DNA of 64,000 nt from Gekko japonicus (taxonomy: Eukaryota). Where the stretch lies: assembly GCF_001447785.1 (NCBI RefSeq), contig NW_015176464.1:1-64000 (forward strand), read 5' to 3'. The notes below the pieces were generated by a model. It saw only the letters and a list, made by a program, of their open reading frames with translations. It was not told where the DNA came from and did not search any database. The position numbers were made by a program, and so were the translations under genes. Shown here one piece after another: positions 1-63,906 of this stretch; the stretch's first letter is position 1, and every line of letters begins with the position of its first letter.

Positions 1-15
1 GAGCCAGAGAGTTCT

Positions 16-88
16 GGTGGCTCGCCGTGTTAAGGCACCACCTATAGAAATCATGAGGTTAATTTGATAGCGGTTCGAATCCCATGTA
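16..88 (+). other. tRNA-like Pol III element (tRNA pseudogene or tRNA-derived SINE head)
   Basis: A-box-like TGGCTCGCCGTGTTAAGG (18-35), B-box GGTTCGAATCC (72-82), followed directly by T-runs (90-100) resembling a Pol III terminator; acceptor stem does not pair cleanly. Confidence 0.4.
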
Positions 89-143
89 GTTTTTCTTTTT
101 GGGTAATGGTTCTATTTTTCTTTTTTTGGGCTTGTTTTATTTT

Positions 144-156
144 TCTATTTTTGTAC
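144..156 (-). terminator. snRNA 3' box-like element (GTACAAAAATAGA)
   Basis: Resembles the GTTTN1-4AANARNAGA consensus (imperfect 5' half); lies 9 nt after the terminal stem-loop. Confidence 0.55.
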
Positions 157-165
157 AATAAAGAT

Positions 166-509
166 AGGGTTTAAGAACCCTGAGGTAGCAGCATGGAACG
201 ATCGAACCGAGAGTACAAGACACACCCACTGCCTTGCCTTGTAAAAAGCAGCTTTCATCAGTGCATCCCTATATGTAGATTTATTTAAGCTACCGGGATG
301 CGTGATGAGCCAGCATGCATAAGGCGCCGTGTGAGGGCAAGCCTTTACAGCAAATACTTTGGTGCATCCTTGTAAGCGGGATGCAATGTGAAGGCAGTGA
401 GGGGTTCGATGGACAGTTCCATCTAGACTAGGTGTGCTAGCCTTCCTTTAGACTCTAAAGGAAGAATACCATAGTCTGGCCCACTCAGAGACCCGAAGGC
501 CTCAAGTTT
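166..509 (-). ncRNA. Putative orphan Pol II snRNA-type structured RNA (~344 nt)
   Basis: Minus-strand start TTC|AAACUUGAGG 63 nt after the PSE; 5' cUUCGg hairpin; many nested stems; terminal hairpin 166-181 then a 3' box-like motif 9 nt downstream. Confidence 0.65.
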
Positions 510-553
510 GAAACCTCAGCCACCCGATCTAGTCTTCCTTATTTTTCCTTTTG

Positions 554-572
554 ATTTCTATGTAAAGGTGAC
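554..572 (-). promoter_or_regulatory. Proximal sequence element (PSE) GTCACCTTTACATAGAAAT
   Basis: Close to the vertebrate SNAPc-binding PSE consensus; no TATA downstream (Pol II type); -63 from a C|A start. Confidence 0.65.
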
Positions 573-697
573 CGTTTTTCACCATGTTTTAACTCTAGGA
601 ATTAGTTTGATTAAACATATAACGACCTTTAAGTAGATTAGGTATGACAACGGATTGATATAAATGTTTATTTTTTTTGTTGATTTAAAACATTCAA

Positions 698-730
698 GTG
701 CCCAGCATGCTTTGAGAAATCTATTTGCAT
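698..730. promoter_or_regulatory. Distal sequence element 1: SPH/ZNF143 site (698-716) plus octamer ATTTGCAT (723-730)
   Basis: GTGCCCAGCATGCTTTGAG next to a perfect octamer, -189 to -221 from the inferred start at 509. Confidence 0.65.
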
Positions 731-883
731 ATATGCCAGCCCCCAACGTCAAAATTACACTCTTGCCCTATATGGATCGATCATGGACTGATCCATTTCC
801 CCGTAATCAAAGGGGGGAGACGTGGGGTTTTTTTGTTTATTATTTTTGTTTTTTTTTAAATCTATTGTTCACACAGTAAAATC

Positions 884-990
884 GGGGGTCTTATTGATGA
901 AAAACCCCTTGGTTAAAAGAGGTACGATACTTATATCGTTCCCTCCGAGGCTCTATGACCTCAGTTTAAAAATAGCCAAGGCTAATGTGA
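884..990 (-). ncRNA. Possible second snRNA-type small RNA (~105 nt; 5' end uncertain)
   Basis: Terminal hairpin 885-908 (G-U pair only on minus), 3' box-like GTGTGAACAATAGA (861-874) 10 nt downstream, two internal hairpins, second DSE ~200 nt upstream; no convincing minus-strand PSE. Confidence 0.35.
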
Positions 991-1181
991 ACTGCACATC
1001 GAACCCATCACGGCCGTGCACAGAGCATGTCTCGCACCCCGGGTTCGAGCTGCAGATTACATTGGACCTTCATGGACTCTTCCTCAACAGAGAGGGAGTT
1101 CCTATGATGATGCCCTTCCGCATGAAGAGAATCATTCTTCAGAATTGCTTTTGCGCTCATGGGGAACAGATTAGGGTAGAG

Positions 1182-1224
1182 CTCCCATGATGCTTTGGAT
1201 TCAAAGGGGGGTGATTATGCAAAT
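1182..1224. promoter_or_regulatory. Distal sequence element 2: SPH-like site (1182-1199) plus octamer ATGCAAAT (1217-1224)
   Basis: CTCCCATGATGCTTTGGA plus a perfect octamer, same order as DSE1. Confidence 0.55.
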
Positions 1225-1281
1225 AGCCCAGCGAGCTATTCCGGAAACTACCGAAGGAGCTTTCGTCAATTTTCGAGACTA

Positions 1282-1644
1282 ATGCTTGTGTTTTCGTTTA
1301 AGCTCGGAGCTTTCCGACGGACTGCCAGAACGCCGATTGCTCTGAATCGGCCAAGCTCGGGTCTCAGGCCCCGACGACTGTTTCAGTCATCCATATTACG
1401 TTCAAGACGACCCGCGGATGTGGTGGTAGAGATAGAAACCCCCAAGCCGCGTCCGAAAGTGCTTCTTTGCTTCATGTTAATGTTCATATGTTTGAGTATT
1501 TTACTTTTGTGTGGAATAGTTATTCAAATTTTACATTTTGTTGATCTTGGTGCAATTACTCGGGATCGTGTTCTACAATGGATCCTGGTTGTAAATAAAC
1601 GTTTACACAACTATCTTGTTGCTCCTGTGGGAGCTACATCTTGA
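1282..1644 (+). CDS. Hypothetical 120-aa basic single-pass membrane protein (or terminal exon from acceptor at 1302)
   Basis: In-frame ATG at 1282; Arg/Ser/Pro-rich N-terminus, hydrophobic VLLCFMLMFICLSILLLCGIVIQIL; AATAAA ~40 and ~70 nt after the stop; CTAAT...pyrimidines...AG acceptor at 1279-1302. Confidence 0.35.
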   Translation: MLVFSFKLGAFRRTARTPIALNRPSSGLRPRRLFQSSILRSRRPADVVVEIETPKPRPKVLLCFMLMFICLSILLLCGIVIQILHFVDLGAITRDRVLQWILVVNKRLHNYLVAPVGATS

Positions 1645-1870
1645 GCTCCAGTGCCAGTATTCAGTTATAATTTCTACCTCGGTTGAATAAAGTTATCTTT
1701 TGGATTTATTTTTGAAATAAAAGTTTATATTGTATTAAAACAGTATATATATATATATTGAATACATCGTTGGTGAAGAAAATTTTGAAGTCTGAATCAT
1801 CTTTGTATACATATTTTTAATGCACCACAATTTTATTACGGATATATATATATATTTACCTTAAATGTTC

Positions 1871-2470: not shown

Positions 2471-3262
2471 GCACAGTCGAGTCCGACTCTTCGCGACCCC
2501 ATGGACAATCTCCCACCAGGCTCTCCTGTCTTCCGCCGTCCTCCGAAGTTGACTCAATTTCATGTTCGTTGCATCGATGACACTGTCTAACCATCTCATC
2601 CTTTGCCGTCCCCGTCTTCTTTGACCTTCAATCTTTCCCAGCATCAGGGTCTTTTCCAGTGAGTGCTCCCTTCTCATTTGGTGGCCAAAGTATTTGAGCT
2701 TCAGTTTCATTATCTGGCCTTCCAGGGAACAGTCAGGGTTGATTTCTTTGAGGATTGACTGATTTGTTCTTCTTGCAGTCCAAGGGACTCTCAAGAGTCT
2801 TCTCCAGCACCATAGTTCAAAAGAATCTATTCTTCGGCGCTCGGCCTTCCTTATAGTCCAGCTCTCGCAGCCATACATGACTACTGGGAATACCATTGCT
2901 TTGACCATGCGGACTTTTGTTGGCAGGGTGATGTCTCTACTTTTTATCATGCTGTTTAGGTTTGCCATCGCTTTCCTCCCAAGGAGCAGGTGTCTTTTAA
3001 TTTCATGGCTGCTGTCACAGTCTGCGGTGATCTGGGATCCCAGGAACGTGAAGTCTGTCACTACTTCCACGACTTCCCCTTCTATTTGCCAAGGAGTGAT
3101 GGGGCCGGATGCCATGATCTTAGTTTTTTTGATGTTGAGCTTCAAGCCCACTTTTGCGCTCTCCTCTTTTACTCTGAGCAAGAGGCTCTTTAGATCCTCT
3201 TCACTTTCAGCCATTAGAGTGGTATCATCTGCATATCTGAGGTTGTTGATCTTTTCCCCAGC
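2471..3262 (-). mobile_element. RTE-BovB LINE, 5'-truncated 3' fragment with open RT C-terminus
   Basis: ORF AESEEDLKSLLLRVKEESAKVGLKLNIKKTKIM...VKAMVFPVVMYGCESWT...HGVAKSRTRL is typical BovB. Confidence 0.95.
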
Positions 3263-3874
3263 AATCCCACCTTACAATCCCCAGCACCACCTTACTAGTT
3301 AGTTAATAGTAATATTAAATTGACACAATAGCCAATCACGGACTTGTTGGGAAGGGCTCTATGATAATGAGGATAAGTCGTTCCCCTCCCTCCAGAAGAA
3401 AAGTTTAAAAACAGAGAACACGGAACTATCAGCAGCCTTTTTCTCTTACTGAAACTTTCTTACATTAGCTCTAGTCTGCAGCTAGGGTTAAGTTTCTCGT
3501 GTCTCCAGCAGGTCTAGAGTCACGTGTCTCTCCTCTCTTTTCATTCATTTTTACCCCCTTGCCACTGCCCATTGCTGGAAGCTTTAGGAGCAGAACGGAG
3601 CATCTGAGGTAAATATATTCTACAAGAAACAACGTTAGTTCCTAATTGTGCTATAATAATTCTATCTGGTTTTCTTAGTTCTTGAATGTGTGTATGGTTT
3701 TACTATTATTATTCCCTGTTTGAATGATCAATACTCAGTAAAGAATTGTTGTTTTACTTTAAGTTGTCGTCTCTTGATTAAAGCGTCATTGCACAGCGGC
3801 ACCCTTTGTATACATTGACCGTAACCCAGTTATTAATAAGCTAATTATCTCTCATAAAGAGTGATTAGGCTAAC
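3263..3874 (+). mobile_element. Probable LTR fragment
   Basis: Ends GGCTAACA like the solo LTR at 21801-22755; CCAAT and AGTAAA motifs; 5' end not identifiable. Confidence 0.35.
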
Positions 3875-39200: not shown

Positions 39201-41277
39201 GAACGCTGTTACCTTCCCACTGAAGTGGTACTACCTATTTATCTACTTGCAATTTCTTGCTTTCGAACTGCTAGGTTGGCAGGAGCTGGAACTAGAGACG
39301 GGAGCTCACTCCGTCTTGCGGCACCCGGGTCTCGAACTGCTGAACTACTGACCTTCCACAGCCTGCAGTTCAGCGTCTTAACCACTTGAGCCCTACTGTT
39401 AATAGCAGGAGACCAAAACATTTCTTTACCCAGGCTTTTAAGAGAAGTTTTATCTCATCTTTTTCAGCTGGTTGTTTTATGACCTGTGTGCTACTTTTTA
39501 TTACTATTGTTGTTTTATAACTGCTTTTAAATGCTGGTTAAGCTGATTGTGTTCCTAAGTGTGAGTTTTATCATTTTATGGCTGGTTTTTATTAATGATT
39601 TTTAAACAATTTTATACTCTTATTTGATTTTACTTTTGTTTATTTATTTAGTTAGTTAGTTTATATCCCACCTTCCCTGCCGAGGCAGACTCAGTGCGGA
39701 TTACACAGAATGTATAAAACAACTAAAACAGAGAAATTAATAAAATCACAACAACATAATTATAAAACATGACATAGTATAAAGTGCTAGTGCGGTTCGT
39801 ATCACAATGGTGGGTATTAGCAGCATCCAACGGCATACAGTCAGCTAATGTCATAGTCTGGATTATATCAGGCTTTTAGTAATGATGTTGTAGAGGAAGC
39901 CCAGAAGTTCAAATGATCATCTATTGATTATTGCTGGGATTCCAGAGGGCCTTAGGAAAGAACTTTAGGGATTTTCCAGAAATAAGCTGGCAAATTGTTA
40001 ACCACTAAGCAGAATTGTAGAAACCGGTGTTTTATATTCAATTTAATTGGCAGAAGAGCAATTTCCTAATGAAAGCAGGTGTTCCAACATCAGTAGACAT
40101 TTTAATTAGGATGGTAAGGTTCGCCACAATAATGACCTGTCATAGTAGAGATTTATGTTCAAACTCTCTGCTTCAAAGAACTAGATTCAGAAGTTCACTA
40201 TGATCTTTTAAATAGCTTTAGCTATAAGGAAGAATCAAACTAAACTCTCCTTTCAGTTTAAAATGCTTTAAATATTGTTAGTGGAAATCTTAAAGCAATC
40301 TATAAGCAATGTACCTGCCTTTTAGCAGCTTATTATTCTAAGGCAAAAAAGACTGCTTGCTTGCTTAGAGAAATAGTTATGCATTTAATGAACTGAGCTG
40401 GTGATGCCCAGTGAAAGGAATTTTATAATTGGTTAAAGAAGATGTCAAGATGATTAATTGAGTTAAGTACAATTATACTTTCTGTAAAAAGATATTTAAG
40501 CCTGAAAACCCCTTTTCCTTATGTGTTTCTAGAAGTTAAAACAAAACTTTTATATTATGTTTATAGCTGAGGATTAAGGCTATGGTATAGCAAGGGAACC
40601 ATTAAATTTACTTTTTATAGAATGTCTGTGAGAGAAGTAGCTGAATATTTACTAAGACTATATTTTTAAATAAGAAACTTTGCTTAAGACTAGCAAACTG
40701 CTAACAAGCAAAAACCTTTCTTCCCAATGGGGACTCAAAGTGGCTTACATGGGTCTCCTCCATTTTATTCTCACAATAACCTTGTGAGGTAGGTTAGGCT
40801 GTGAGACTGTGGGGCTTAAGGTCACCCAGTGAGCTTCCATGGCATGAATGTGTGTGCCAAACCTGGGTCTCCCAGACACTAGTCTGACATTACTAACTAC
40901 ACCACACTGGCATTAGTGCTCACTATTTTTATATTCATCTTTTGTTGCACGCTGGAGCACTACCTAGGTAGCAATCTCCAGTTTCTGCCTCATAGAAAGG
41001 TAAAGAAAATTATATTTTTAGTAGAAATAACCCACAAAATGATATTAAGAGTGCTGTTATACACTTATATGCATGTATCAATATAAAGAAACCACTTTTG
41101 TAACAGAACCAATAGATTTTATACTGAAAATGAACTCAGCCACTCTGTGTGTAAAAGTTCATTCAAAGGTAAAGCAAGTCTGGGAGAATGACCAAAAGCT
41201 GCATTCATCATTTTTAATGAGATGAGCACCTGCATTGTAAAGTTGAAATGCAGCCAAGTAACATCTTGTTAGTCAAA

Positions 41278-41457
41278 TATTCCCTACAGGCAAGCGTGCT
41301 TTCCATTATTCCCTACAGGCAAGCGTGCTTTCCATTATTCTCTACGGGCAAGCGTGCTTTCCATTATTCCCCATGGGCAAGCGTGCTTTCCATTATTCCC
41401 CATGGGCAAGCGTGCTTTCCATTATTCCCCATGGGCAAGCGTGGTGTCCATTATTCC
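41278..41457 (+). repeat. 29-bp minisatellite, ~6 copies (TATTCCCCATGGGCAAGCGTGCTTTCCAT)
   Basis: Directly visible head-to-tail units without spacers. Confidence 0.9.
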
Positions 41458-41899
41458 GCTTGGACATCACACACCAGAGGTCATTCTGGCTCCCCCAGCT
41501 CTCGTTAGGTGGCGGCAATAACTTTTTAAAGAGCCCCTAATGAGAGCTGGGGGAGCTGGAATTACCTGTTGCGTGTGATGTCTGAGCAGCAACGCCGCTC
41601 AGACATCACATGCGAGGTGGAATTTGTCCCTAGGAGTCCAAGGCCACCACCCTGGGGCTCAGGGAGGCGGGAATGTTTCAAAAAAAACCCAGCTGTTGCC
41701 GCTGCCGGTGGCGGCGGGGCGGACATAACTTTTTAAATAGCCCCTAACTAGAGCTGGGAGAGCCGGAATGACCTCTGGGCAATATTGCCTATGGGCAATC
41801 ATGGATTCTCTATTGGCAATTATGTCCCTATTTTGTCTGCGTATGCTCACATCTGTTCAGACTTGGGTGCCAATTCTTTTGTTTTAATGTAAGAAAAGA

Positions 41900-42760
41900 C
41901 AGCCAACTAATTCCTTGCTCTTTCGTCGACTCCGCTAGAGACAGGCCAGCGAGCCTCACAGCACCTGAGGTGTTTCCATGACAACGACGTTGGTGCGGAG
42001 ACTGACTGACTGACATCCAGCGTCAGCGTCTGCCTAACGGCGACTTCTCGCAACATAGAATTGTTACCAAAGAGGTAACAACCTTAACATAATCCTCACA
42101 ACCCTTCCGGTTTCCAGTTGAAAAGACGCGACATCCAATGCAAAGAAACGTCAGTGTAGCGTAGGAAGGCGAGAAATAGAGCACGCTTCCCTCATCACAC
42201 ATATTCTATATCTGCGTATTATCGCCTTCCTTTCTGGCTTCTTCCTGTAATACCCCGCACAGGCAGTCCAGTACATACCGGAAGTTAATTTTGTGCACAA
42301 CGCGTGTTTTCCTCTAGCTCTGATGAGCGGTGTGTATCTGTAGTCTTAGTTTCCCCGCTTCCCCTCCCTCCCTGAAAAAATACGTAACGAGGGGAGGGTG
42401 CGGAGGGGCGGAGTTGTGGTCTTTCACCATAGAGATAGGAAAAGGAAGCGGATCTTGATCCTTTTCCCTGAGAGGGGAGTGGACGTCGCTGACTTTGGCA
42501 GGACTATTTGGGAGCGGCTCCTGCTGCTGCCGTCCGCCCCAGGTGAGTCTTTGGGAAGGAGGAGGAAGGGTCGCAGGTGGGTGGACGGGTATGTCTGTGC
42601 GGTAGGATCCTTCCGGGGGGGGGGGAGCCTCTTAAGATCCCCCAGCCCTGATTTCAGTAGATTTCTCTGAGGTTTCGTTTTCGGAGCCCCCTTTCGAATA
42701 AAAGCGGCCGCCCCTTCTTCTCGACTACGTAGGAGGAGGAAAGAAACCTTCTCCCAGCGG
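41900..42760 (+). promoter_or_regulatory. C1GALT1C1: CpG-island promoter and non-coding first exon of C1GALT1C1 (donor CAG|GTGAGT at 42542/42543)
   Basis: CpG-rich, ETS site ACCGGAAGT 42277-42285, GC box GGGGCGGAG near 42405, strong donor; coding exon downstream has an acceptor near 48072. Confidence 0.65.
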
Positions 42761-45700
42761 ACCCTAGCTGGAGTTTGCAGTACCAATTGTGATCCGACTG
42801 AGGCTCTACAAAGAATACATAATATTGGCGGCACGAAAGATGTTAACATTGGCCTTGTTAATATTGGCCATATCGATACAAAATTATGATAGTAGTAATG
42901 TTGTTTTATTTAAATGCTCCCTTCTACAAAATTTGCTTCCTGGAGGCGGTGTACAGCACAGTCAAATGACATCAAAAGCAAGCCCGAAGCCATGCTCCCT
43001 AAAACAACCTACACTGATATAAAAATGAAGCAGAAACAGGAAAAGGCTACAGCCACTAATGCAGCAAAAACAACAGCCGTTTAAATCAAAGAGCACCCAA
43101 GCCAAATGTATAATAATGATAACCGATGGAGGAAAGACTCAAGCAAATTCATTAAAAACAAGCTGGAATAAAAATAGAGAAGAATCTGACACTTAATGAT
43201 ATTGCCTGTGTCAATAATATCAGTATTGGTACTATTAGTTCTGACAATATTGGTATTCCACACATTTTTTAATTGCTGGCCATACGAAAAAGAAGCATCC
43301 AGTACAGAGTGGTGATGGGTACTCTGTTAAAATTAAAGGAGAGAAGATAGGGTGACTCTATGTATTCATGAACTTTATCAGGCTCAGTATTTATATAATG
43401 TTCTCAGTGCTTCATGTACATTATCTTGTATTCTTTACAACCATTGTTATTTTTATCTTCCTGTTCCAGAGAGGGAGGCTGAGACTGACAGAGAGTGGTT
43501 TGTAGACAGTGTGGCAGAGACAGGATTTGAACTGAAGTCTGAACTTTGGAGATTTGAACTCTGTCACAGCTGCTGCATTCTCTTAGCTGCTGCATTCCAC
43601 CAAAAAGTTTATGGGATAAAAAAAATACTGACAGGGGTCTGTTTTTGAAAACTTTTCCAAGTCCATATTATGACAACAGACTGGCAGCCTATGAAAGCCT
43701 TGCCCAAATCAACTTGTAAAACCTCTACAGTGCCACAACCATTTTGTGTGGCTGCTGCTAAACTACTATGTAGCCTGAATATAGAATATCTTTTATATGC
43801 AGTATCTCACTAATCCTTCACGGAATCCAGCACAGTAGGTCATTACTGTTATTCCCCTATTGCGCTGGGGTGGGTGTGGCTGGGCCAAGCACAGCTTCCT
43901 TGAGACCTCATAGTGAATTCATGACAAATGAATTACAAAGAGGGACCTTCTATTTGCCACTCACCCTTTTGGCTACTGAGCTGCACTCAAGTATGCATGC
44001 ATGTGTTTAGGTTTGAATCCCATCCTTCCCAAAAGCTGAGTATTACAAAATTGCCTGGCTGTTACATAAAATTTCACACAGTGGAACAAGGATTGGCTTC
44101 CCTTCTCCCACCTCACCAACATGAGACCCTTCTAACAGTGCTGCACTACATCAAACTGAAGTTCACTTAATATAACTGTGTCTTGCCCTTTTTTTCATGC
44201 CATATTCATACTCAAGCATATCATATATTCCAGGGAGGTATCCAGGGCTATTTTGGGGCAGGAACGCACAGGAACGGAGTTCTGTCTGGCTCCCGAGTTG
44301 GCCACACCCAGCAGGAACTCATTAGCATAATAGGCCACACCCAACAGCAGAAACTCATTAGGACTGGCTACATTAGGGGTGTGTGGCCTAACATGCAAAG
44401 GAGTTCCTGCTATAAAAAAGCCCTGGGTTTTGACAACAAACAAGGTAAACAGAATAAGAAGCAAAAGGTGAGTGTGTCTGGATGACCACACTTCTACGAA
44501 CATGGGGTGTGTGGCCTAATATGCTAATGAGCTGTGCTGTCAAGGGTGTGTCCTAATAAGCAAATGAATTTCTGCTGTTGGGTGTGGCCTATTATGCTAA
44601 TGAGTTCCTGCTGGGCTTTTTCTACAAAAAAAGCCCTGGAGGTATCCATGTTAGGCCAACACACTTCAAACACATGGCACCATAAAGATGAACTAACTTA
44701 TTGTGGTATCTGACATGGTGGGCTTTGGCTCAAGAAAATTTATCCCAGAATAAATTCATTCAGCCATTAAGGTGTCATGAGACTCTTTCCAAATGGTAAT
44801 AACTATAAGTGAATGGCAGAATTGATCAGTGTATTAATTAATATACGCTAGCCAAGCCAGAGCAGTGTATGGTTAGAGTGGGGCTGGATAGAGGCAAGCT
44901 CAGATTGCTGGTCACAGTGAAATTCACTGTGTGACCACCTTGGACCAGTTGCTCTCTCTCAGGGTAACCTACCTCATAGGGTTGTTGTGGGGATAAAATG
45001 GAGGAGGGGACAACCATGTACACTGCCTTGAATTAACTGAAGAAAGAACTAAATAAAAATTAACAAATAAATATTGTCAACTATGTGTGGTAGGCTAATA
45101 TGTTTGATCTGTTATGCTTCTGTAATGGTTGGTTTGCAGCGCCAACTGGGTTGTATTGGATATCTTAGTGTGTATTTTTGTAATCTACCCTGAGTTGTGA
45201 AAGGGCGAGTTATAAAACTTTTACTAAAAAACATGAAAAAGTTATTGTTAATGTGTGCCTTGGGTCACCTGACTGACATATTAGCTAACATGGCCAATAC
45301 ACTACCTAGTTCTTTCTTCTTCAGTGTGAATTCCTAAAGTAAACACTTAAGTGAAAGAGGGAGGTCATTCTCTGCCAGGCAAACTAAAAGTTAGCCTGGT
45401 GTTTTTCTTGTAGCTTAGAGCTGAATAGGTGTGCTAATTAATCCTCTTGATCATTTTATGTAAGAACTACTGGGCTGTTAAAAATTGTGCCCAGTACTTT
45501 CAATATGTGACGGCACAAGAAAAGATCACCCTGCCCATTTCTGATCATTCTGAAGGCCCGATATGTTAAACGGCATCCAAAACTTATAAAATGGATACAG
45601 AGAACCTTTTCTTCCGTGATACTGGATGGGGGCCCCTCTAAATGGGCACAACAGATAAAATGACACAACACATAACTAACTTGTGGAACTCACAGCCACA

Positions 45701-54500: not shown

Positions 54501-57253
54501 CCAAATATGAAGGACAGAAAGAAAAAAGATTAGGGACCAACATCACCAAGAAAATACATTTTTGAACACCTCCAGCCCATCTAGAACAGCACATTTTGCA
54601 AACAGAATAATCATGTTAAAAATGTAAACAACAGAAGTGTCACAGTGTTAACAGGCAAGCCTCTGCAGACAGCAGAACACAAGCTGGAAGCAAGAAAAGG
54701 TGAGAAACGTAAATACAGAGTGGAACAAACAGGCAACCTATTTGCTAGACAAGTTGAAAGTATAAAGTTAAAGGCAGACAACAGAATCTGAAAACTTCAC
54801 ACACACCACACGGAGGCAGCCACAATGCGAAGAAGTCTGAAATACCGCACAGAAGGTACAGCTTGGCACAAACTAGCTAGCTCTTTAAGTTCTAATGGAG
54901 CAGTAACTTGGGCACATTCAAGTGTAGATAACACACCTGTTTCAATAATGCAACCCCTTCTCCCCACAGTGCCCCCATTTTCACTCCCACACTTACATTT
55001 ATGAAGTAATCTCAGCGTTGGATAGAAAGGCCCTTCTCTTTGCCTGAAGAACAGTAATTCTCCATTTACTGTGAGGATTTCTATATGTTCGTGACTGGAA
55101 GACACAAAGTTAGCTAAAGGTTTAAAAGGTGATTTGGAATGGGGTGGGATTTTTCCACACAAGAGAAATAATTAATCTCTCGCATATTTACAGCATTTTG
55201 TGTACATTACAACATAGTTTAAAGGAATATATCATCCAATATTTATGTCCACTCAGCTAGATAAAAATCATGTCTCAGGGTAGATCTCCCCTCTGGGGTT
55301 ATTATTCATTGTAAACCCAAAAAGACAGGTTTGGCCTTCTGGTTCTATGGAGCAGTCTACAAACTATACAAAAGACTTTTAAAATTTGATTAAGCAAACC
55401 ACCAATTTTGATATTCTAGCATCATTACCAATGACCCAGGCAAATACACTTCAGAAGTAAAAGCAACTTGAAGAACACTGTAATAGGAGATACTCACCAT
55501 CGTACTATCTTGACAGGATCTTTCTTTGGCATAATTTGGTTTAGCCATGGCTCAATACCAGGAAACTGATCTAGCAGTTGGTTCTTAATGCCTTTAATAA
55601 CAGATGTTTTTAACTGGATGCAGTTGGATACATTTTCCTTTTCATCAAATCTGTCAGATAAATCAAAGTGTTTCAGAGGTGATCTCCAGATTCACCACTT
55701 ATTCCTGCCTCACCAGTTTAATTGTAAGTCAACAATATACTTTACAGAAGCAAGAAAGGGCTGAGCTGGGGGGGGGGGGACTTTAAGTATCTAAACACCC
55801 AATTAATGGTGACTTCTTAAAATATTCTGGTGCTGAGATATTTCAGATATTCTCCCACTCTGATTTTAATAACACTGTTTCCTTTTGTGAAAGCATACTT
55901 CAATGTGATTGTGCCTTCTCCTGCATTACCCACAATGATATACATTCATGAGTATGTTTAGCAACTAAAGTTTTAAGCAATTCAGTATCAAGAAGGATTA
56001 GCAAGTTGCACATAATTACAGCAATTAACACTCAAATGTCTAGACTACATTTTAAAACCTACCCTTTATATCAGAGACAACATTAATTCAATCTTGTACT
56101 TTTCTTCTACAAGAATCCCCATGCTTCACACCCACGCATATTAAATTTTCAAAGCAAGAACCTCCCTTTTTTAATATTTGTGGCATAACTTATTGTGTTC
56201 GCTGAAGCAGGGAACAGGCTCTTGTTTAAGAACAGCACAAGTGCATTGTTGACTCTGGCCAGTGTCCCCTATTTCAGTATTCTCTGCAAGAAGTCCCAGC
56301 AAATAGCATGCACTAAATGTCTGCAGTTGTAATTTTCCACTATTTGCTAAATCAACATTTTTTTTATTTCTGAAAGTGTACAAAATATCTACAATAAATG
56401 CTAGGCAACCAAAGGTCTACTTTCAGACTACTCCTGTTCTAAAGTTCCTAGAGAGCTATGAAAAAAACACTTGGAAAAAGAGGCCTTAAACCAGTTCCCT
56501 TGCTCTTCCAAACCCTGTGTCTGCAAAACCTTTCCTCGCCACTCCAGTACTTTCACCACTCACATCCCTTTCACCACCTCTGGCAATCCCAATTTACTTA
56601 CTTGAAAATAAATCCATCCAAACAGGACTTGCCTCCCATATCCCAGAAATACATTTCTACATACCATGGAGACAGGAGATAAAGAAAAATGACACACAAC
56701 GCAGAGAGAGAGAGAACTCCCTTGGGAGGTCTACAAGATGTCAGGGGCTTCACCATACCAATATCCTCATCTCCCTCCCTGTGGTTTTTGCCTTTAGCAA
56801 CATTGCGCCTCTTGCAGCATACTCAGTCCCCATTTAGCCAAAGGATGCGTTGGGGCGGGGGGGGGGGGGGGGAGTTTTTTTTTTCGGTTATTTTTAAAAT
56901 CGTCTCTTTCTACATACCCTGCACATGTAGAGGCCGCTAAATTACCTACAGCTGGCTTAGTTTCACCGCGTTTGTGATTTAGCATGGGCCGCGGTCATTT
57001 TACTATCAGATCATATTGCATTTAATCGCACTCTTTCTCCAGGCAGCTTAGGGAGGGGTGTGTGTGTGAATTCTTCTCCCCTTTTATTTTCACAATTCCG
57101 CGAGAGCTTTCATTTTTAAAATGCTGTTGCTTCTTGCAATAGTAATAAATAACAGAAACCAAGACACACCCGATGACCACCACATCCCCACCCCTCAGAG
57201 ATCATCACTGTGTATCAGTTTCCAGCTTCACTCCCTACTCACTTCTTAAACAT
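51599..57253 (-). CDS. MCTS1: MCTS1 re-initiation and release factor, 181 aa; coding exons 57243-57253, 55498-55650, 54997-55094, 53904-54037, 53075-53142, 51599-51680
   Basis: Spliced translation [29 protein letters not shown]...[65 protein letters not shown]...[14 protein letters not shown]; exons sum to 546 nt; all GT-AG; AATAAA at 51473-51478. Confidence 0.98.
53455..53545. repeat. Compound microsatellite (TATC)n(TC)n(TA)n(CA)n
   Basis: Directly visible. Confidence 0.9.
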
Positions 57254-57620
57254 CCTGGGGGCGCTGGGTCCCCGCACGTCCGGGCGGAGCGAGGACCTGG
57301 GAGGGTGGGGGTTGGCACCCACTGGCTCCCGATTTGACCCTCCTCACTCTCACACGAGGCCCTTCAGGCCCTCCCTTCTCTTCTGCACCAGACGGAAAGG
57401 AAATCGGCGTCACTTTACGGCCGTCGCGTCGTGAAGCGCTGCCCCGCCGCACCTTTCCCGAGCGAACGAAACACCCTGAGTCACTTACAGGAAGAGAAAG
57501 ACTACAACTCCCACTAGGCAATTCGTGTAGGAAACATTAAGGCCGGTAGAGTTGATCCAGCCTTCTTCCTTGCCTAATCTCGGCACAGCCGTTGCCATGG
57601 AGACCTTCATCCGTTTATGT
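57254..57620 (-). promoter_or_regulatory. MCTS1: MCTS1 5'UTR / CpG-island promoter
   Basis: CpG-rich segment just upstream of the ATG; ZNF143-type ACTACAACTCCCA at 57501-57513. Confidence 0.65.
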
Positions 57621-57764
57621 TGGCCCACATACCAAAACCAGGCACCAAGAGCCGATTTAAAGTGCCCTGTTTATGCCCTGGAGTTGCCCCCAAAATAAAT
57701 GCTCCCTCTCATTTTTGAAATAACGTAATTTTACGGTAGTAATTCCAGTGGAGTAATTATGTTA

Positions 57765-58125
57765 GGCCCCGGTCACACAGGCCGGATATGGGGGGGAGGC
57801 GTGGCTAATTGCCCCAGCGCAGTTTGATGCGCAATTACACGATCAGACGCACCAACAGCACGCCACGGGTCGTTCCCTTGGCGCAGGTGGGCAAACAAGG
57901 GACCAGAGGGGAATGCGGCGCGCTGACACGATCACACCACGGGCATCTGGAGGCAGCCCATGGCAAACATTTACTAGTACCTTGGAGGTACTAGTTTTTT
58001 TAAGGCGCATTGTCGGCGGTAAGCCATCGGTGTGCTCCACTTCCCAGATGTTGGGGTGTGATCGCGGCCAGATCGCGGCCCACCATCCGTGCCTCCCGCG
58101 GCAACTTTGCCGTGTGACCGGGGCC
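57765..58125. mobile_element. PIF/Harbinger-type MITE
   Basis: Perfect TIR GGCCCCGGTCACAC / GTGTGACCGGGGCC, TSD TTA. Confidence 0.85.
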
Positions 58126-58733
58126 TTAGTCTGTTGGGACAAAAAGGTGCCACAGGACTTCTATTTTATTTTGCTATAACAGGCCAACATCTATCCCACT
58201 GAAGCAGCAAAAATAAACAATTGTAAAGCACATTAGAGTAACATGGGGGGGGGGGGGTTGTAGTCCTCAATTTATACCATAATAAAACCATGTTTGCTAC
58301 ATCTTACTAGAACAGCCATAAAAAGAATAGTGTGGCAAAGCTAGGGTTGCCAGGTCTGGGTTGGAAAAGACCTGGAGACTTTGGGGGTGGATCTAGGTGG
58401 GGTTTGGGGAGGGGCCTCAGCATGGTACAATGCCATAGAGTCCACCCTTCAAAGCAGCCATTTTCACCAGGGGAGCTGATCTCAGTCAGCTGAAGGTCAG
58501 TTGTAAAAGCAGGAGATCCCCAGGCCCCACCTGGAGGCGGGCAATCCTAGGCAAGGCTATGTAAAAATCATTAATCAGAAAAAGCACAAAGCCTGGTAAG
58601 ATTTTTTTTATTTCTGGCTTAACCAAACCACGATAAAAATGTTAAAACCTATATTGAATGAGGAATCTGCAGTCCTTGTTAATTTCTTCACACATAGCAT
58701 CAAATTTACTGAAGTCTAACCCAGTAATTTCAG

Positions 58734-59389
58734 ATTCAGGTGGGTAGCCATGTTGGTCTGAAGCAGCAGAACGAACGTTGAGCCCAGTGGCACCTTTAAG
58801 ACCTACAAAGTTTTATCCAAGGTATAAACTTTCGAGTGCACACACACTTTCAGATTCAATGAAATGGAAATTACCACTCCATACATATAGGTAGAGAGTG
58901 AGCAGTAAATTAGCACACAGCATAATAAAGATGTTTAACAGATTCAAGGACCAAACAGGAATAACATGATAAATATATATGGTTACCATTTGTTTGGGTT
59001 TAATTCTGAGGGAAAACATAGTGAACGAAATAAATGTCAAAGGTGGAGCGTAACGGCAGGGTCTCTGTTAATTACTCTCAGCATTCCACAATTAAGGATA
59101 CATCTGCCCATCAATCTCCAACTTGACAGTTATTTCATTCACCGTTTTCCCTCAGAATTAAACCCAAACAAATGGTAACCATATACACTTAGCTAGTTAT
59201 TCCTGTTTGGTCCTTGAATCTGTTAGACATCTTTATTATGCTGTGTGCTAATTTACTGCTCACCCTCTACCTATATGTATAGACTGGTCATTTCCATTTC
59301 ATTGTATCTGAATAAGTGTGTGTGCACATGAAAGCTTATACCTTGAATAAAAATTTGTCTTAAAGGTTCCACTGAGCTCAAACTTTGTT
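58734..59389. mobile_element. Penelope-like element remnant with inverted pseudo-LTR arms
   Basis: ~250-bp inverted arms, 13-bp TSD CCAGTAATTTCAG, degenerate hammerhead core CTGAATAAGTGTGTGTGCACATGAAAG. Confidence 0.75.
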
Positions 59390-60899
59390 CCAGTAATTTC
59401 AGGCTAGAGTCTTCTCTTGAAGTTCTTCTGTTGGAGAACAGTGACTCTCAGGTCCCTGCCACACGGCAGGGAATTAGGTGCTAGTACCGCGGCTAAAGTG
59501 AGCCGCGGCAAAGTTGGGACGGCGCGGCGGGATCTCACAGATCCCCCGAGCCGCGTCGCAACGCTCCCCGGCACGATCAGATGCCGGGGAGAACGCAGCG
59601 GTGGGAAGGGGAGCCTGGCGAACTGCGCATGCTCACACATGCGCAGTTCGGCCAGGAGCCGGGGATGCGCCGGCGCAAGGACGCGCCGGCGATCCCACGG
59701 CCAGCGTTGCCGCAGCATTGCTGCGGCCCTCCTTTCTTCCCCCATTTCTTCCAATATAAGTAGCTACCCATATCACACATATAGGAAGCAGTGCAATATA
59801 CATAATGCTGCTTCCAGTTTCATCCTCAACTGTAAAACTTCACACAAGTCCATAATATTGTGTTCACTTCAAGCTTGCAATCTAGTCTGCACCTGCTTAA
59901 GAAGCTACAAAACTTGGCTCTGCAAAGCTGTTTGTATAGAAGATTTTCACCAAGTTACCAGGACAGGGGCAAAACAGAACAGAAATCTATAATCCTTCAA
60001 AGAATTTGCCCAACAACATAATCTCTAGTATAAAAGAAAGGTAGGTCAACATAGATGTAAGAGGGGTGTAACTGCATACAATGATCCTGCTCCTTTTTCA
60101 AAACAAAGATGAAAGTTCACAAGAATACAAAGATGAATAAATCAATAGAAACTCGTGTCAAACGAAACCACACAACTAAGAGGAATAAAATATGTTTCGA
60201 AAGGTTGTGAAAAGGTAAGATAGAATGCTTAATAGTGAAAAAGGAGACTATAACTCTAGTGACTGTAGTAGAGTGGGGGGAGGGGGGTATTTATTATTGC
60301 CTTAATTTACACCATGGTTCTCTCCCCAATGACGTTCTGAAGTTTATTCTCCTCTCCTCATAACAACTCTGTGATGTGGATAAGGCTGAGAGTGTGTGAC
60401 CAACTCAAGGTCACGAAGCAAACTTCCATGGCAGAGTGGAGATTTGAATTCAGGTCTCCCAGATCCTAGTCTGATACTAACCACTACAGCATGTTGGCTT
60501 TTAAAGAGGACTTTATACTATAAAAAAATAAATAAAGGGCAGATCAAACCGTAAGTGTTGCTGATGGTGTCAAAAGAATGCAGATTTCACATGCATTAGC
60601 AGAACCATTAGGAATATGTGCGTATGCAAAAAATAAAAATCTAGAGAAATAACTGTGTCAGTCTGTTGTACATAAAATAAAAATGTCATTGTAGGTACTA
60701 TAGATTAAACCAATTTATTATTGCAGAAGCTTGCTTCATTAGATGCATGAATACCTAAAGGGGCGGGAATGTAAACCAAAGCTGCAGCCCTATGGAAACT
60801 TACTTTGGAGTTGCTCCATTAAACTCACCGGGACTTACTTGTGTGTAAATCAGTATCGGGTTCAGGCTCAACTCTTAATGGACAGTTAAGCACATTTAA

Positions 60900-62182
60900 C
60901 GCTGCATCGGATCACAGCCAAATGATGCCGAGATGCAAAATGAAACCAAGCGAGGAACCAAGGCGTTCCCCTCCCCGTTTCCCTCAACCCATTCCTGGCC
61001 AAGGAAAGAAGGGGAGAACACGCCTCCTAAGCCTGCCCCTGAAATGGGCAGGGAGAAGACAAGGGAGGGAAGCTGCATTCGAGAGATCCCAACCGCTCCT
61101 TTCTTCCAAGCTTTTACTCCCCCCACCCTGGGAAGCCCGCACGGCTCCATCCGATGGGGCTCAAACCCCGCCGGGCCACGGGAAAAAGAAAGGCCACCCG
61201 AAAATCCGCTACAGGGGGCGGGGGGCAACAAGGCTGCTCAGCGCACCCGCCCATCCTTTCTCGGAGAAAAGTGCGGTGGCCCCGCCTCTTTCCATAAGGA
61301 AGCTTCAAGCGCTGGAGCGCGAGGATTTTCCAACGGACCAGCCATCCCATGGCTGGGCGCGCGAGAGGCCAGCAGCAGCCACCCGGCAACATGATCACTT
61401 CCGGTAGGTCAGAGGACAGAGGAAGGCGGGTGGGGTGCTAGGTAGCGAGGGGGGGGGGAGAGAAGGCCGAGGCGGGGGAGGGAAGGGACGCGAGGAAAGG
61501 CCGAGGCGCGAGAGGCAGGGCCGACCACCTTCCTGCCAGAGCCTGGCCAGCCTCTTTCGTCTGGTTGAGCCCCACAGGGGGGAACTTGAAGTCGGTTCCG
61601 AGGCGCCCGGCAATGCTTCCGGGCGGGGCGGCCTCCCGACATGCCTAGCAACCGGATGCACCGCCATCTTTAGCCTCCCTGCCTCTCAGCTCTAGTATTG
61701 ACAATAACAAGCCGCGATCCCAGGCCGGCCTCCCTCTCCCCCCCTCCCTCTCTTGGCAACGAAAGAGGAGGAGGAAGTGGAGGGGAAGTGAGAGAAGGAG
61801 AAGGGAGCTCGACTCCCCTCTCCTTCCTCAGGAGAGAGGTGGCCTCGGGCAGGGGGACGAGAGTGAGAAAGAGGGACCCTGCCCGCTTCTTGGAGCGGAG
61901 AAGGGGGCAGAGCCGAGAAGGAGGCCTGCCAGCATCGGGAACGGGGAGAGGCGTTCGCTCACTCGGGGCAGGCAGAACTCCCTGAGAGAAGAAACCAACC
62001 AGAGGGGGAGGGCAGACAAGAAGCGCTTCTCCTGATCGAGGGGGACCTGCTTGGCAAGGAGGCACAAGCTTTGGATCCCGCCGGCAAGGCAGAGCTCTTC
62101 AGTTACCAACTCGGTCTCTTTCTGCGTGTCTGTCACACCAGCAGGATTTGATGCCCTTCAGCCTGCTCACCTCTGTGTGTTC
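60900..62182 (+). promoter_or_regulatory. CUL4B: CUL4B CpG-island promoter region
   Basis: GC/CpG-rich, GC boxes, YY1 motif CCGCCATCTT at 61661-61670. Confidence 0.75.
61391..61403 (+). CDS. CUL4B: Probable alternative CUL4B first coding micro-exon (MITS-G)
   Basis: GCAACATG ATC ACT TCC G|GTAGGT; joins in frame to acceptor TTTCCCACAG|GT at 62195/62196 giving [12 protein letters not shown]. Confidence 0.55.
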
Positions 62183-63705: not shown

Positions 63706-63906
63706 GGGGAGGGGCTGTGGCTCAGTGGGAGAGCCTCTGCTTTGCATACAGAAGGTTCCAGGTTCAGTCCCTGGCATCTCCAGTTAAAAGTATGAGACAG
63801 TAGGTGACGTAAAAAAACTCTACCTGGCAAGATGCTGCCAGTCTGACTAGGCAGTACTGACCTTGATGGACTGATAGTCTGATTCCATATAAGGCAGCTT
63901 CATATG
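63706..63906 (+). mobile_element. tRNA(Ala)-like-headed SINE
   Basis: GGGGCTGTGGCTCAGTGGGAGAGCCTCTGCTTTGCATACAGAAGGTTCCAGGTTCAGTCCCTGGCATCTCCA followed by a non-tRNA body. Confidence 0.7.

Follow-up and report, generated by a model that had tools for sequence, protein, structure and literature searches.

Viral genes of the small nuclear RNA (snRNA) type are presented in reviews as a feature of herpesviruses, namely the HSURs (PMC4378190). HSUR1 of Herpesvirus saimiri (HVS), a herpesvirus of monkeys, is reported to bind miR-27 and to trigger its decay, and HSUR2 to bind miR-16 and miR-142-3p as an adaptor (PMC4378190; PMC13158664). Vertebrate snRNA genes are described as recruiting RNA polymerase II (Pol II) by a distal sequence element (DSE) and a proximal sequence element (PSE) without a TATA box, and their 3' box as being read only from such a promoter (PMC5493778). 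The small RNAs described for retroviruses are RNA polymerase III (Pol III)-derived or canonical microRNAs, or long antisense RNAs, and those of bovine leukemia virus (BLV) and foamy viruses come from internal promoters independently of the long terminal repeat (LTR) (PMC4378190, PMC5807749). In this study we analysed a window of 64,000 nucleotides of Gekko japonicus DNA (NW_015176464.1, positions 1 to 64,000), the first 1870 bp of which form a cassette that an earlier sequence-only reading had regarded as compositionally foreign. This cassette (1-1870, plus strand in the sense of the provirus) belongs, with hardly any doubt, to an endogenous retrovirus present in many copies, in which it separates env from the 3' LTR, and it very probably carries two snRNA-type genes, A and B, on its minus strand.

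A multi-copy endogenous retrovirus at the window start

The cassette contains 62 CpG at a GC content of 0.41, with a CpG observed/expected ratio (o/e) of 0.80 against 0.27 in the remaining window (2471-64000), in good agreement with the approximately 60 CpG and the weak depletion relative to the surroundings that had been counted by hand. None of 59 downstream windows of the same size had an o/e of 0.80, and their maximum was 0.67. Further CpG-rich stretches were found at 41000-43000 and 57000-62000, with an o/e of 0.55-0.77 in most 1-kb bins. The cassette is indeed cut by an assembly gap (600 N, 1871-2470), and since the window starts at base 1 of its own contig (C16754), there is no upstream window to inspect. 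The sequence-only reading had noted that the SINE/MITE families of the remaining window are missing from the cassette; as a correction, the cassette is itself a repeat with nucleotide matches on 32 contigs including its own (65-94% identity over long matches). In five Rfam scans the cassette had no hit that reached the gathering score or E<0.01.

The identity of the cassette was read from the flanks of other copies, which were fetched for eight other contigs bearing it. An env frame was located directly upstream in seven of the eight, the eighth contig ending there, and pol and gag were found further upstream where the contig reaches, with Pfam matches to protease, reverse transcriptase, tether, RNase H and integrase. 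Downstream of the cassette these copies contain a polypurine tract (PPT) and then an LTR. The order LTR-gag-pro/pol-env-LTR with a PPT is present in other copies, and the window holds the spacer and the remainder of the 3' LTR; by the positions in other copies, the env stop lies about 150 bp ahead of base 1. Four LTR pairs were 96.3-99.7% identical, which indicates young insertions, and a primer site, presumably of the tRNA-Pro type, was visible in two of the four LTR-paired copies. In one copy the spacer had a CpG o/e of 0.71, compared with 0.50 for pol, 0.47 for the LTR and 0.38 for env, which makes it the CpG-richest part of the provirus. Past the gap, the window contains a fragment of a LINE reverse transcriptase (2471-3271, minus strand), which we take to be RTE-like, and behind it the remaining part of the 3' LTR (3283-3870, plus strand), equivalent to LTR positions 396-979 of another copy at 84% identity. 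This LTR remainder is what a correctly scaffolded provirus should show, so the contig is not mis-scaffolded.

Probable antisense snRNA-type genes and their predicted folds

Twenty-seven natural copies, the window and 26 contigs, were aligned and five of the matching contigs were left out. The aligned copies split into subfamily A (77-94% identical to the window) and subfamily B (62-68%). Position weight matrices (PWMs) of the PSE and the 3' box were built from 22 host U1, U2 and U5 genes, and the PSE consensus was the one given in PMC5493778. Two snRNA-type units had been proposed for the cassette, and both are present, on the minus strand. Gene B is predicted at 167-509, its ends being placed from the spacing of PSE and 3' box (predicted length 254-380 nt across copies), and gene A at 884-1105 (about 220 nt).

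The PSE of gene B (554-572, minus strand) is the top PWM site of the window copy, and that of gene A (1148-1166, minus strand) has the best median over 20 copies and ranks third in the window copy. Each has one mismatch to the published consensus and lies approximately 60 nt upstream of the predicted start, and a TATA box is absent. Searching both strands of 1-1870 for sites within one mismatch of the consensus returned only these two, both on the minus strand, and 0 were found in about 120,000 host sites. The 3' box of gene B (144-157, minus strand) is the top host-PWM site of the window copy (18.9 bits) and has the top median over 25 copies, and the 3' box of gene A (861-874, minus strand), which carries one mismatch in the window copy, has the second-best median over 21 copies; both are located about 10 nt past a terminal hairpin. 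The DSE of gene B (698-730) is composed of a Staf/SPH site (698-714) and an octamer (723-730), the latter at about -221 from the predicted start, where the octamers of host U1/U5 genes are found at -221 to -233. Gene A has a compact DSE (1182-1224) composed of a Staf/SPH site (1182-1197), a purine tract (1203-1211) and an octamer (1217-1224), with the Staf site and octamer at -77 to -119, nearer than in host U1/U2/U5 genes. The vertebrate promoter grammar that had been recognised in the cassette is confirmed by these snRNA-type PSE, Staf, octamer and 3' box motifs. When two held-out copies of a third subfamily were scored, the two highest-scoring PSE sites and the two highest-scoring 3' box sites lay at the homologous places. 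We therefore consider genes A and B to be very probably genes of the snRNA type.

Another conserved block (766-817) contains a CArG-like box, a motif assignment that we assume, with one mismatch in the window copy and present in 18 of 21 copies, together with a purine tract (809-817). The purine tracts 809-817 and 1203-1211 are both conserved and have the same core as the proviral PPT; they are possible internal plus-strand primers or transcription-factor sites. A sense-strand promoter of the U6/H1 type at 723-800 was tried and rejected, as its PSE score was low (median 2.1) and its 'TATA' is the CArG box in 18/21 copies; no Pol III matrix was built, because the host U6 loci found were retrocopies without promoters. 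In one copy (L084, C47452) unrelated sequence interrupts gene A, the promoter side of which is missing, and gene B is kept.

Gene B is predicted to fold into a 5' hairpin with a cUUCGg loop, a long closing stem and a terminal hairpin (167-180), and gene A into a stem of 23-26 bp followed by three 3' hairpins. The long stem of both RNAs is closed by the same UCGAACC/GGUUCGA pair, which suggests that the two genes arose by duplication. In four copies each, the minimum free energy z score against shuffles was -4.0 to -5.5 for gene A and -3.1 to -5.9 for gene B, compared with -0.7 to 0.6 for the spacer between them. Two-sided changes common to at least five copies were found in 6/67 and 7/80 pairs of the two RNAs and in 0/21 pairs of that spacer, and the cUUCGg loop, read on the minus strand, is kept in 22/23 copies.

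MicroRNA sites, diverged lineages and rival explanations

Directly ahead of the terminal hairpin of gene B, on the minus strand at 181-193, overlap two 8-mer sites, one for let-7 (181-188, in 24/25 copies) and one for miR-15/16 (186-193, in 25/25 copies), and the longest conserved run of the cassette (178-192, 15 nt) contains these microRNA sites. Host let-7 and miR-16 family members were taken from this genome, and their predicted pairing with the gene B site covers positions 1-11 of let-7 and positions 1-8 of miR-16. Gene A has no 8-mer site for let-7 or miR-16. A candidate 7-mer site for miR-103/107 fits the motif too (24/25 copies). Assuming 50-200 microRNA families, the rough chance of two 8-mer matches is 7e-5 to 1e-3 within the longest run and 0.002-0.03 over all conserved runs. 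On these sites and their conservation, gene B probably has a microRNA-binding function, with appreciable room for doubt.

In the third subfamily, whose Env C-terminus is 60-62% or less identical to that of subfamily A, the flank has changed and the miR-16 site is lost, and let-7 pairing at positions 1-9 is kept; a seed match to miR-196 is gained, with which host miR-196 pairs at positions 2-10. The post-pol stretches of 19 further Pol-related loci were also inspected, of which one held env and 18 were uninformative. At the locus with env, which represents a sister lineage, Pol is 83% identical to subfamily B and the Env C-terminus 51% identical to subfamily A, and the link of this lineage to env is established at this one locus only. 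The spacer of this locus does not match the window at the nucleotide level but has many relatives in the genome. Five of eight aligned sister spacers keep the env-proximal end, and in all five the minus strand shows a terminal hairpin flanked by a canonical Sm site and a 3' box, in keeping with an snRNA-type gene that is 290-400 nt long and antisense to the provirus (L116:1600-2000 on C4472, L137, L138, L139 and L144). The octamer is at -225 to -226 in the three measured, and the PSE ranked first in two loci and outside the top three in two others. No Rfam match was obtained for this gene, and there is no let-7 site in the Sm slot. Ahead of the last hairpin, one lineage thus has an Sm site in the slot where the others have a site for let-7.

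From the proviral context, the motifs, the predicted structure and the conserved sites, we infer the following mechanism, including discrete transcripts, Argonaute binding and an effect on the cell. Staf and Oct-1 would bind the DSE and SNAPc the PSE, Pol II would initiate about 60 nt past the PSE, and Integrator would cut ahead of the 3' box. The integrated provirus would in this way yield capped, non-polyadenylated RNAs of about 220 nt (gene A) and 250-380 nt (gene B), transcribed independently of the LTR, and owing to the antisense placement neither the snRNA-type units nor the microRNA sites would be part of the viral genomic RNA. The gene B RNA would bind let-7-loaded Argonaute, in two subfamilies also Argonaute carrying miR-15/16, and would sequester or redirect these microRNAs as a decoy or adaptor, like HSUR1/2. 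Both let-7 and miR-15/16 are brakes on proliferation, and the likely outcome would be that infected cells are kept cycling and alive. That the retrovirus encodes HSUR-like, SNAPc/Integrator-made microRNA-binding RNAs is the reading that we favour with some reserve. The wider proposal is more tentative and we would not yet rely on it: a reptile retrovirus clade may have independently evolved its own snRNA genes, antisense behind env and driven by SNAPc and Integrator, with an Sm snRNP in one lineage and, in others, a compact trap for let-7 together with miR-15/16 or miR-196 in the corresponding slot, and the endogenous copies may to this day dampen these microRNAs in the host.

Three raw RNA runs under the same species label were compared with the cassette and contained 276, 130 and 8 cassette reads. 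Most of the reads were less than 95% alike and hence derive from other copies, and the retroviral family is present in RNA libraries. At 190-235 of the window many reads follow, from 211 onward, a different variant, by eye a match to the C8339-type copy, and expression may come mainly from this one subtype.

Several results weigh against the proposed microRNA-binding snRNA-type RNAs. The three RNA runs revealed no discrete RNA, as reads were found on both orientations without a pile-up of read ends, and reads run across the 3' box of gene B. By its median over copies the gene B PSE comes no higher than fifth. It has 3-4 mismatches in 15/22 copies, the gene A PSE has as many in 7/20 copies, and a third held-out copy, the B-like C3550, failed the PSE/3' box ranking. 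A canonical Sm site was found in 0/20 gene A copies and in only 2/23 gene B copies. The covarying pairs mostly track the split between subfamilies A and B and so represent few events, the plus strand folds about equally well, and a strand test by G-U asymmetry gave 3 vs 4, that is, no strand signal. The microRNA site was spotted by eye ahead of testing, and single-sequence folds leave the let-7 seed match only partly accessible (P unpaired 0.18-0.96). The 3' pairing to let-7 and miR-16 varies among copies, so microRNA decay is not supported.

In one rival explanation the genes are real snRNA-type genes whose main role is that of a microRNA precursor, through the stem of gene A, or of a protein-binding scaffold, the seed match being secondary. 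Gene A is equally conserved though it lacks both 8-mer sites, the UCGAACC/GGUUCGA paired stem is common to both RNAs, the corresponding slot of a sister lineage is occupied by an Sm site and lacks one for let-7, and HVS is described as producing microRNAs from snRNA-type units (PMC4378190). We nevertheless consider such a main role unlikely, because the pre-miRNAs of HVS are downstream of the HSUR 3' box and the stems here are inside the RNA, the let-7 match stays exact in three subfamilies while adjacent bases change, and two 8-mer matches in the longest conserved run are not readily expected at the chance level given above. It is still less probable that the structures are cis elements of the sense genomic RNA, for export or packaging, or DNA enhancers of an internal promoter that serves the accessory exon, with look-alikes of PSE and 3' box arising by chance. 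Such elements would fit the equal or better folding of the plus strand, the nature of Staf, octamer and CArG as general enhancer motifs, and the RNA reads continuing through the predicted ends, but they leave unexplained that PSE, octamer spacing, terminal hairpin and 3' box align on one strand, twice and in three subfamilies, that an Sm site joins the aligned signals in a fourth lineage, and that the cUUCGg loop reads on the minus strand.

The sense strand itself might give rise to a let-7 or miR-16 mimic, in the way that Pol III hairpins yield viral microRNAs in BLV and foamy viruses, since 181-193 on the plus strand resembles both microRNAs at their 5' ends and, 90 nt upstream, there is a unit of the Pol III type. 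However, no pre-miRNA-like plus-strand hairpin holds this arm (six folds, two copies) and the Pol III unit stops in a T run at about 90, short of the motif, which makes this origin very improbable. The sequence-only reading had offered an endogenous DNA virus or Polinton, an unmethylated host non-coding RNA locus or a mis-scaffolded contig, and the high CpG o/e and HSUR-like grammar would suit these options. The foreign viral origin stands in the form of a retrovirus, and we give the options themselves practically no credence. The viral or Polinton genes that it proposed to look for, such as DNA polymerase B, capsid and terminase, did not turn up in other copies, where the six flanking open reading frames (ORFs) scanned were retroviral or without a family, and in place of terminal inverted repeats the element ends are direct LTRs. 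With env, pol and gag upstream and an LTR downstream in these copies, neither a DNA virus nor a Polinton is indicated; the retroviral flanks and the multi-copy state, 32 contigs, do not fit a single-copy host locus, and the rest of the 3' LTR past the gap speaks against mis-scaffolding.

Sense-strand units, retroviral lineage and comparison with known systems

The sense strand of the spacer carries two further units. A unit resembling Pol III type-2 genes (1-95, plus strand) has an A-box-like motif (18-29), a B box (72-82), a T run that ends it at about 90, and two hairpins, and this grammar is found in subfamilies A and B. It had been read as a tRNA-like element, of which the B box, the A-box-like motif and the T run hold; as a tRNA gene it was rejected, because there is no cloverleaf with an anticodon and neither ARAGORN nor Rfam calls a tRNA. 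A tRNA-Ala(TGC)-like sequence is present elsewhere in the window (63711-63782, Rfam 50.6 bits) and is either a gene or the head of a SINE.

The membrane-protein ORF with poly(A) signals claimed earlier was recovered as a transmembrane ORF (1195-1644) with AATAAA hexamers at 1594, 1686 and 1716, which sit in AT-rich DNA. Conservation of the ORF begins only at a branch-point/polypyrimidine/AG motif (1277-1302), so the unit is listed as 1277-1644 on the plus strand, with a branch-point-like motif, the acceptor AG at 1301-1302 and an exon of 113 aa with one hydrophobic segment. The exon has 105-113 aa in 10 copies; among the others, 3 have early stops, 3 meet a gap or contig end and 11 have no acceptor match. 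Between nine subfamily A and five subfamily B copies, differences at codon positions 1/2/3 were 9.7/4.5/19.1 over 29 codons, which indicates purifying selection. It is probably a spliced membrane-protein exon of an accessory protein, for which Pfam gave no hit at cut-off and the Atlas no hit.

The retroviral lineage was assigned from Env, because no reverse transcriptase tree was made. At E<=0.001 the Env search retrieved 204 representatives. One of these is chicken LOC422926 (E 8e-77, 30% identity), which is described as the Ovex1 ORF3 locus (PMC2717909), and Env is homologous to Ovex1 ORF3. The same source holds that ORF3 and Gag-Pol of Ovex1 may differ in origin (PMC2717909). Named Pol relatives are from turtles, a caecilian, a hummingbird and Xenopus (46-53%). 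Env had no match in Pfam, including PF00523, or in the PDB and nothing by word-index search, and Pol had no match in IMG/VR; Atlas features of Env point weakly toward Fusion_gly clusters (0.89-0.90). A protein of Bufonid herpesvirus 1 (P0070, 928 aa) also matches Env (E 2e-21), which suggests that an envelope gene of the Ovex1 type has been exchanged between a herpesvirus and retroviruses. Among the proviral copies, the one on C5007 has a 5' half (L019:2371-4959) with a long repetitive coiled-coil frame and no match to the gag region of other copies, and it is possibly recombinant. On C14649 (L021/L023) the match between LTRs continues past the LTR end, as in tandem proviruses or an assembly collapse. 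Ten contigs (G000, e.g. C3408:499203-500423) gave Pol matches of identical score, 34% identical to Pol and with the same frame length of 1254 aa, and these are another, very recent retroelement family.

Ovex1, SpeV and CrocERV37-39 are described as a lineage of birds and reptiles (PMC4299795), with which the gecko element shares an Env homologous to Ovex1 ORF3. Ovex1 is reported to lack both obvious accessory ORFs and homologous LTRs (PMC2717909), whereas the gecko copies have near-identical LTR pairs, an accessory exon and an RNA cassette. Lokiretroviruses are alike in their dual RNase H and in an Env with an RXKR site. The Fusion_gly lead is weak, the gecko Env has no PF00523 hit and its best named relatives are of the Ovex1 type. 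The microRNA cluster of BLV is located directly after env, and unit 1-95 has a type-2 Pol III grammar similar to that of the BLV cluster and the foamy virus units. The BLV and foamy virus units are Pol III pre-miRNA hairpins, whereas genes A and B have a PSE, a DSE and a 3' box without TATA and carry target sites, not guide strands. Searches of the open literature, which do not cover Repbase or most subscription papers, showed no snRNA-type gene in a retrovirus.

If our reading is true, the retroviral PSE/3' box genes would mean that the HSUR strategy has arisen a second time on its own, here directed against let-7 and miR-15/16. The four diverged lineages in one genome, whose common slot contains either an Sm site or a let-7 site combined with one for miR-16 or miR-196, would form a natural series in which one can ask how viral decoy RNAs arise and whether snRNA-type RNAs without an Sm site are stable. 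The poorly known Ovex1-type lineage would also gain a complex form bearing an accessory gene. The closest likeness remains that to the HSURs of Herpesvirus saimiri, which are viral Pol II RNAs with an snRNA promoter and a 3' box, and the analogy drawn by the sequence-only reading is upheld as a likeness of gene design. Here, in contrast, the genes are carried by a retrovirus, in antisense orientation to the viral genome; the predicted RNAs are GC-structured and not U-rich, the main site is for let-7, and the window lineage lacks the Sm site that is present in the sister lineage. On the best reading, by analogy, genes A and B would work like HSUR1/2 and yet not be HSURs, as they have neither Rfam homology to them nor an Sm site.

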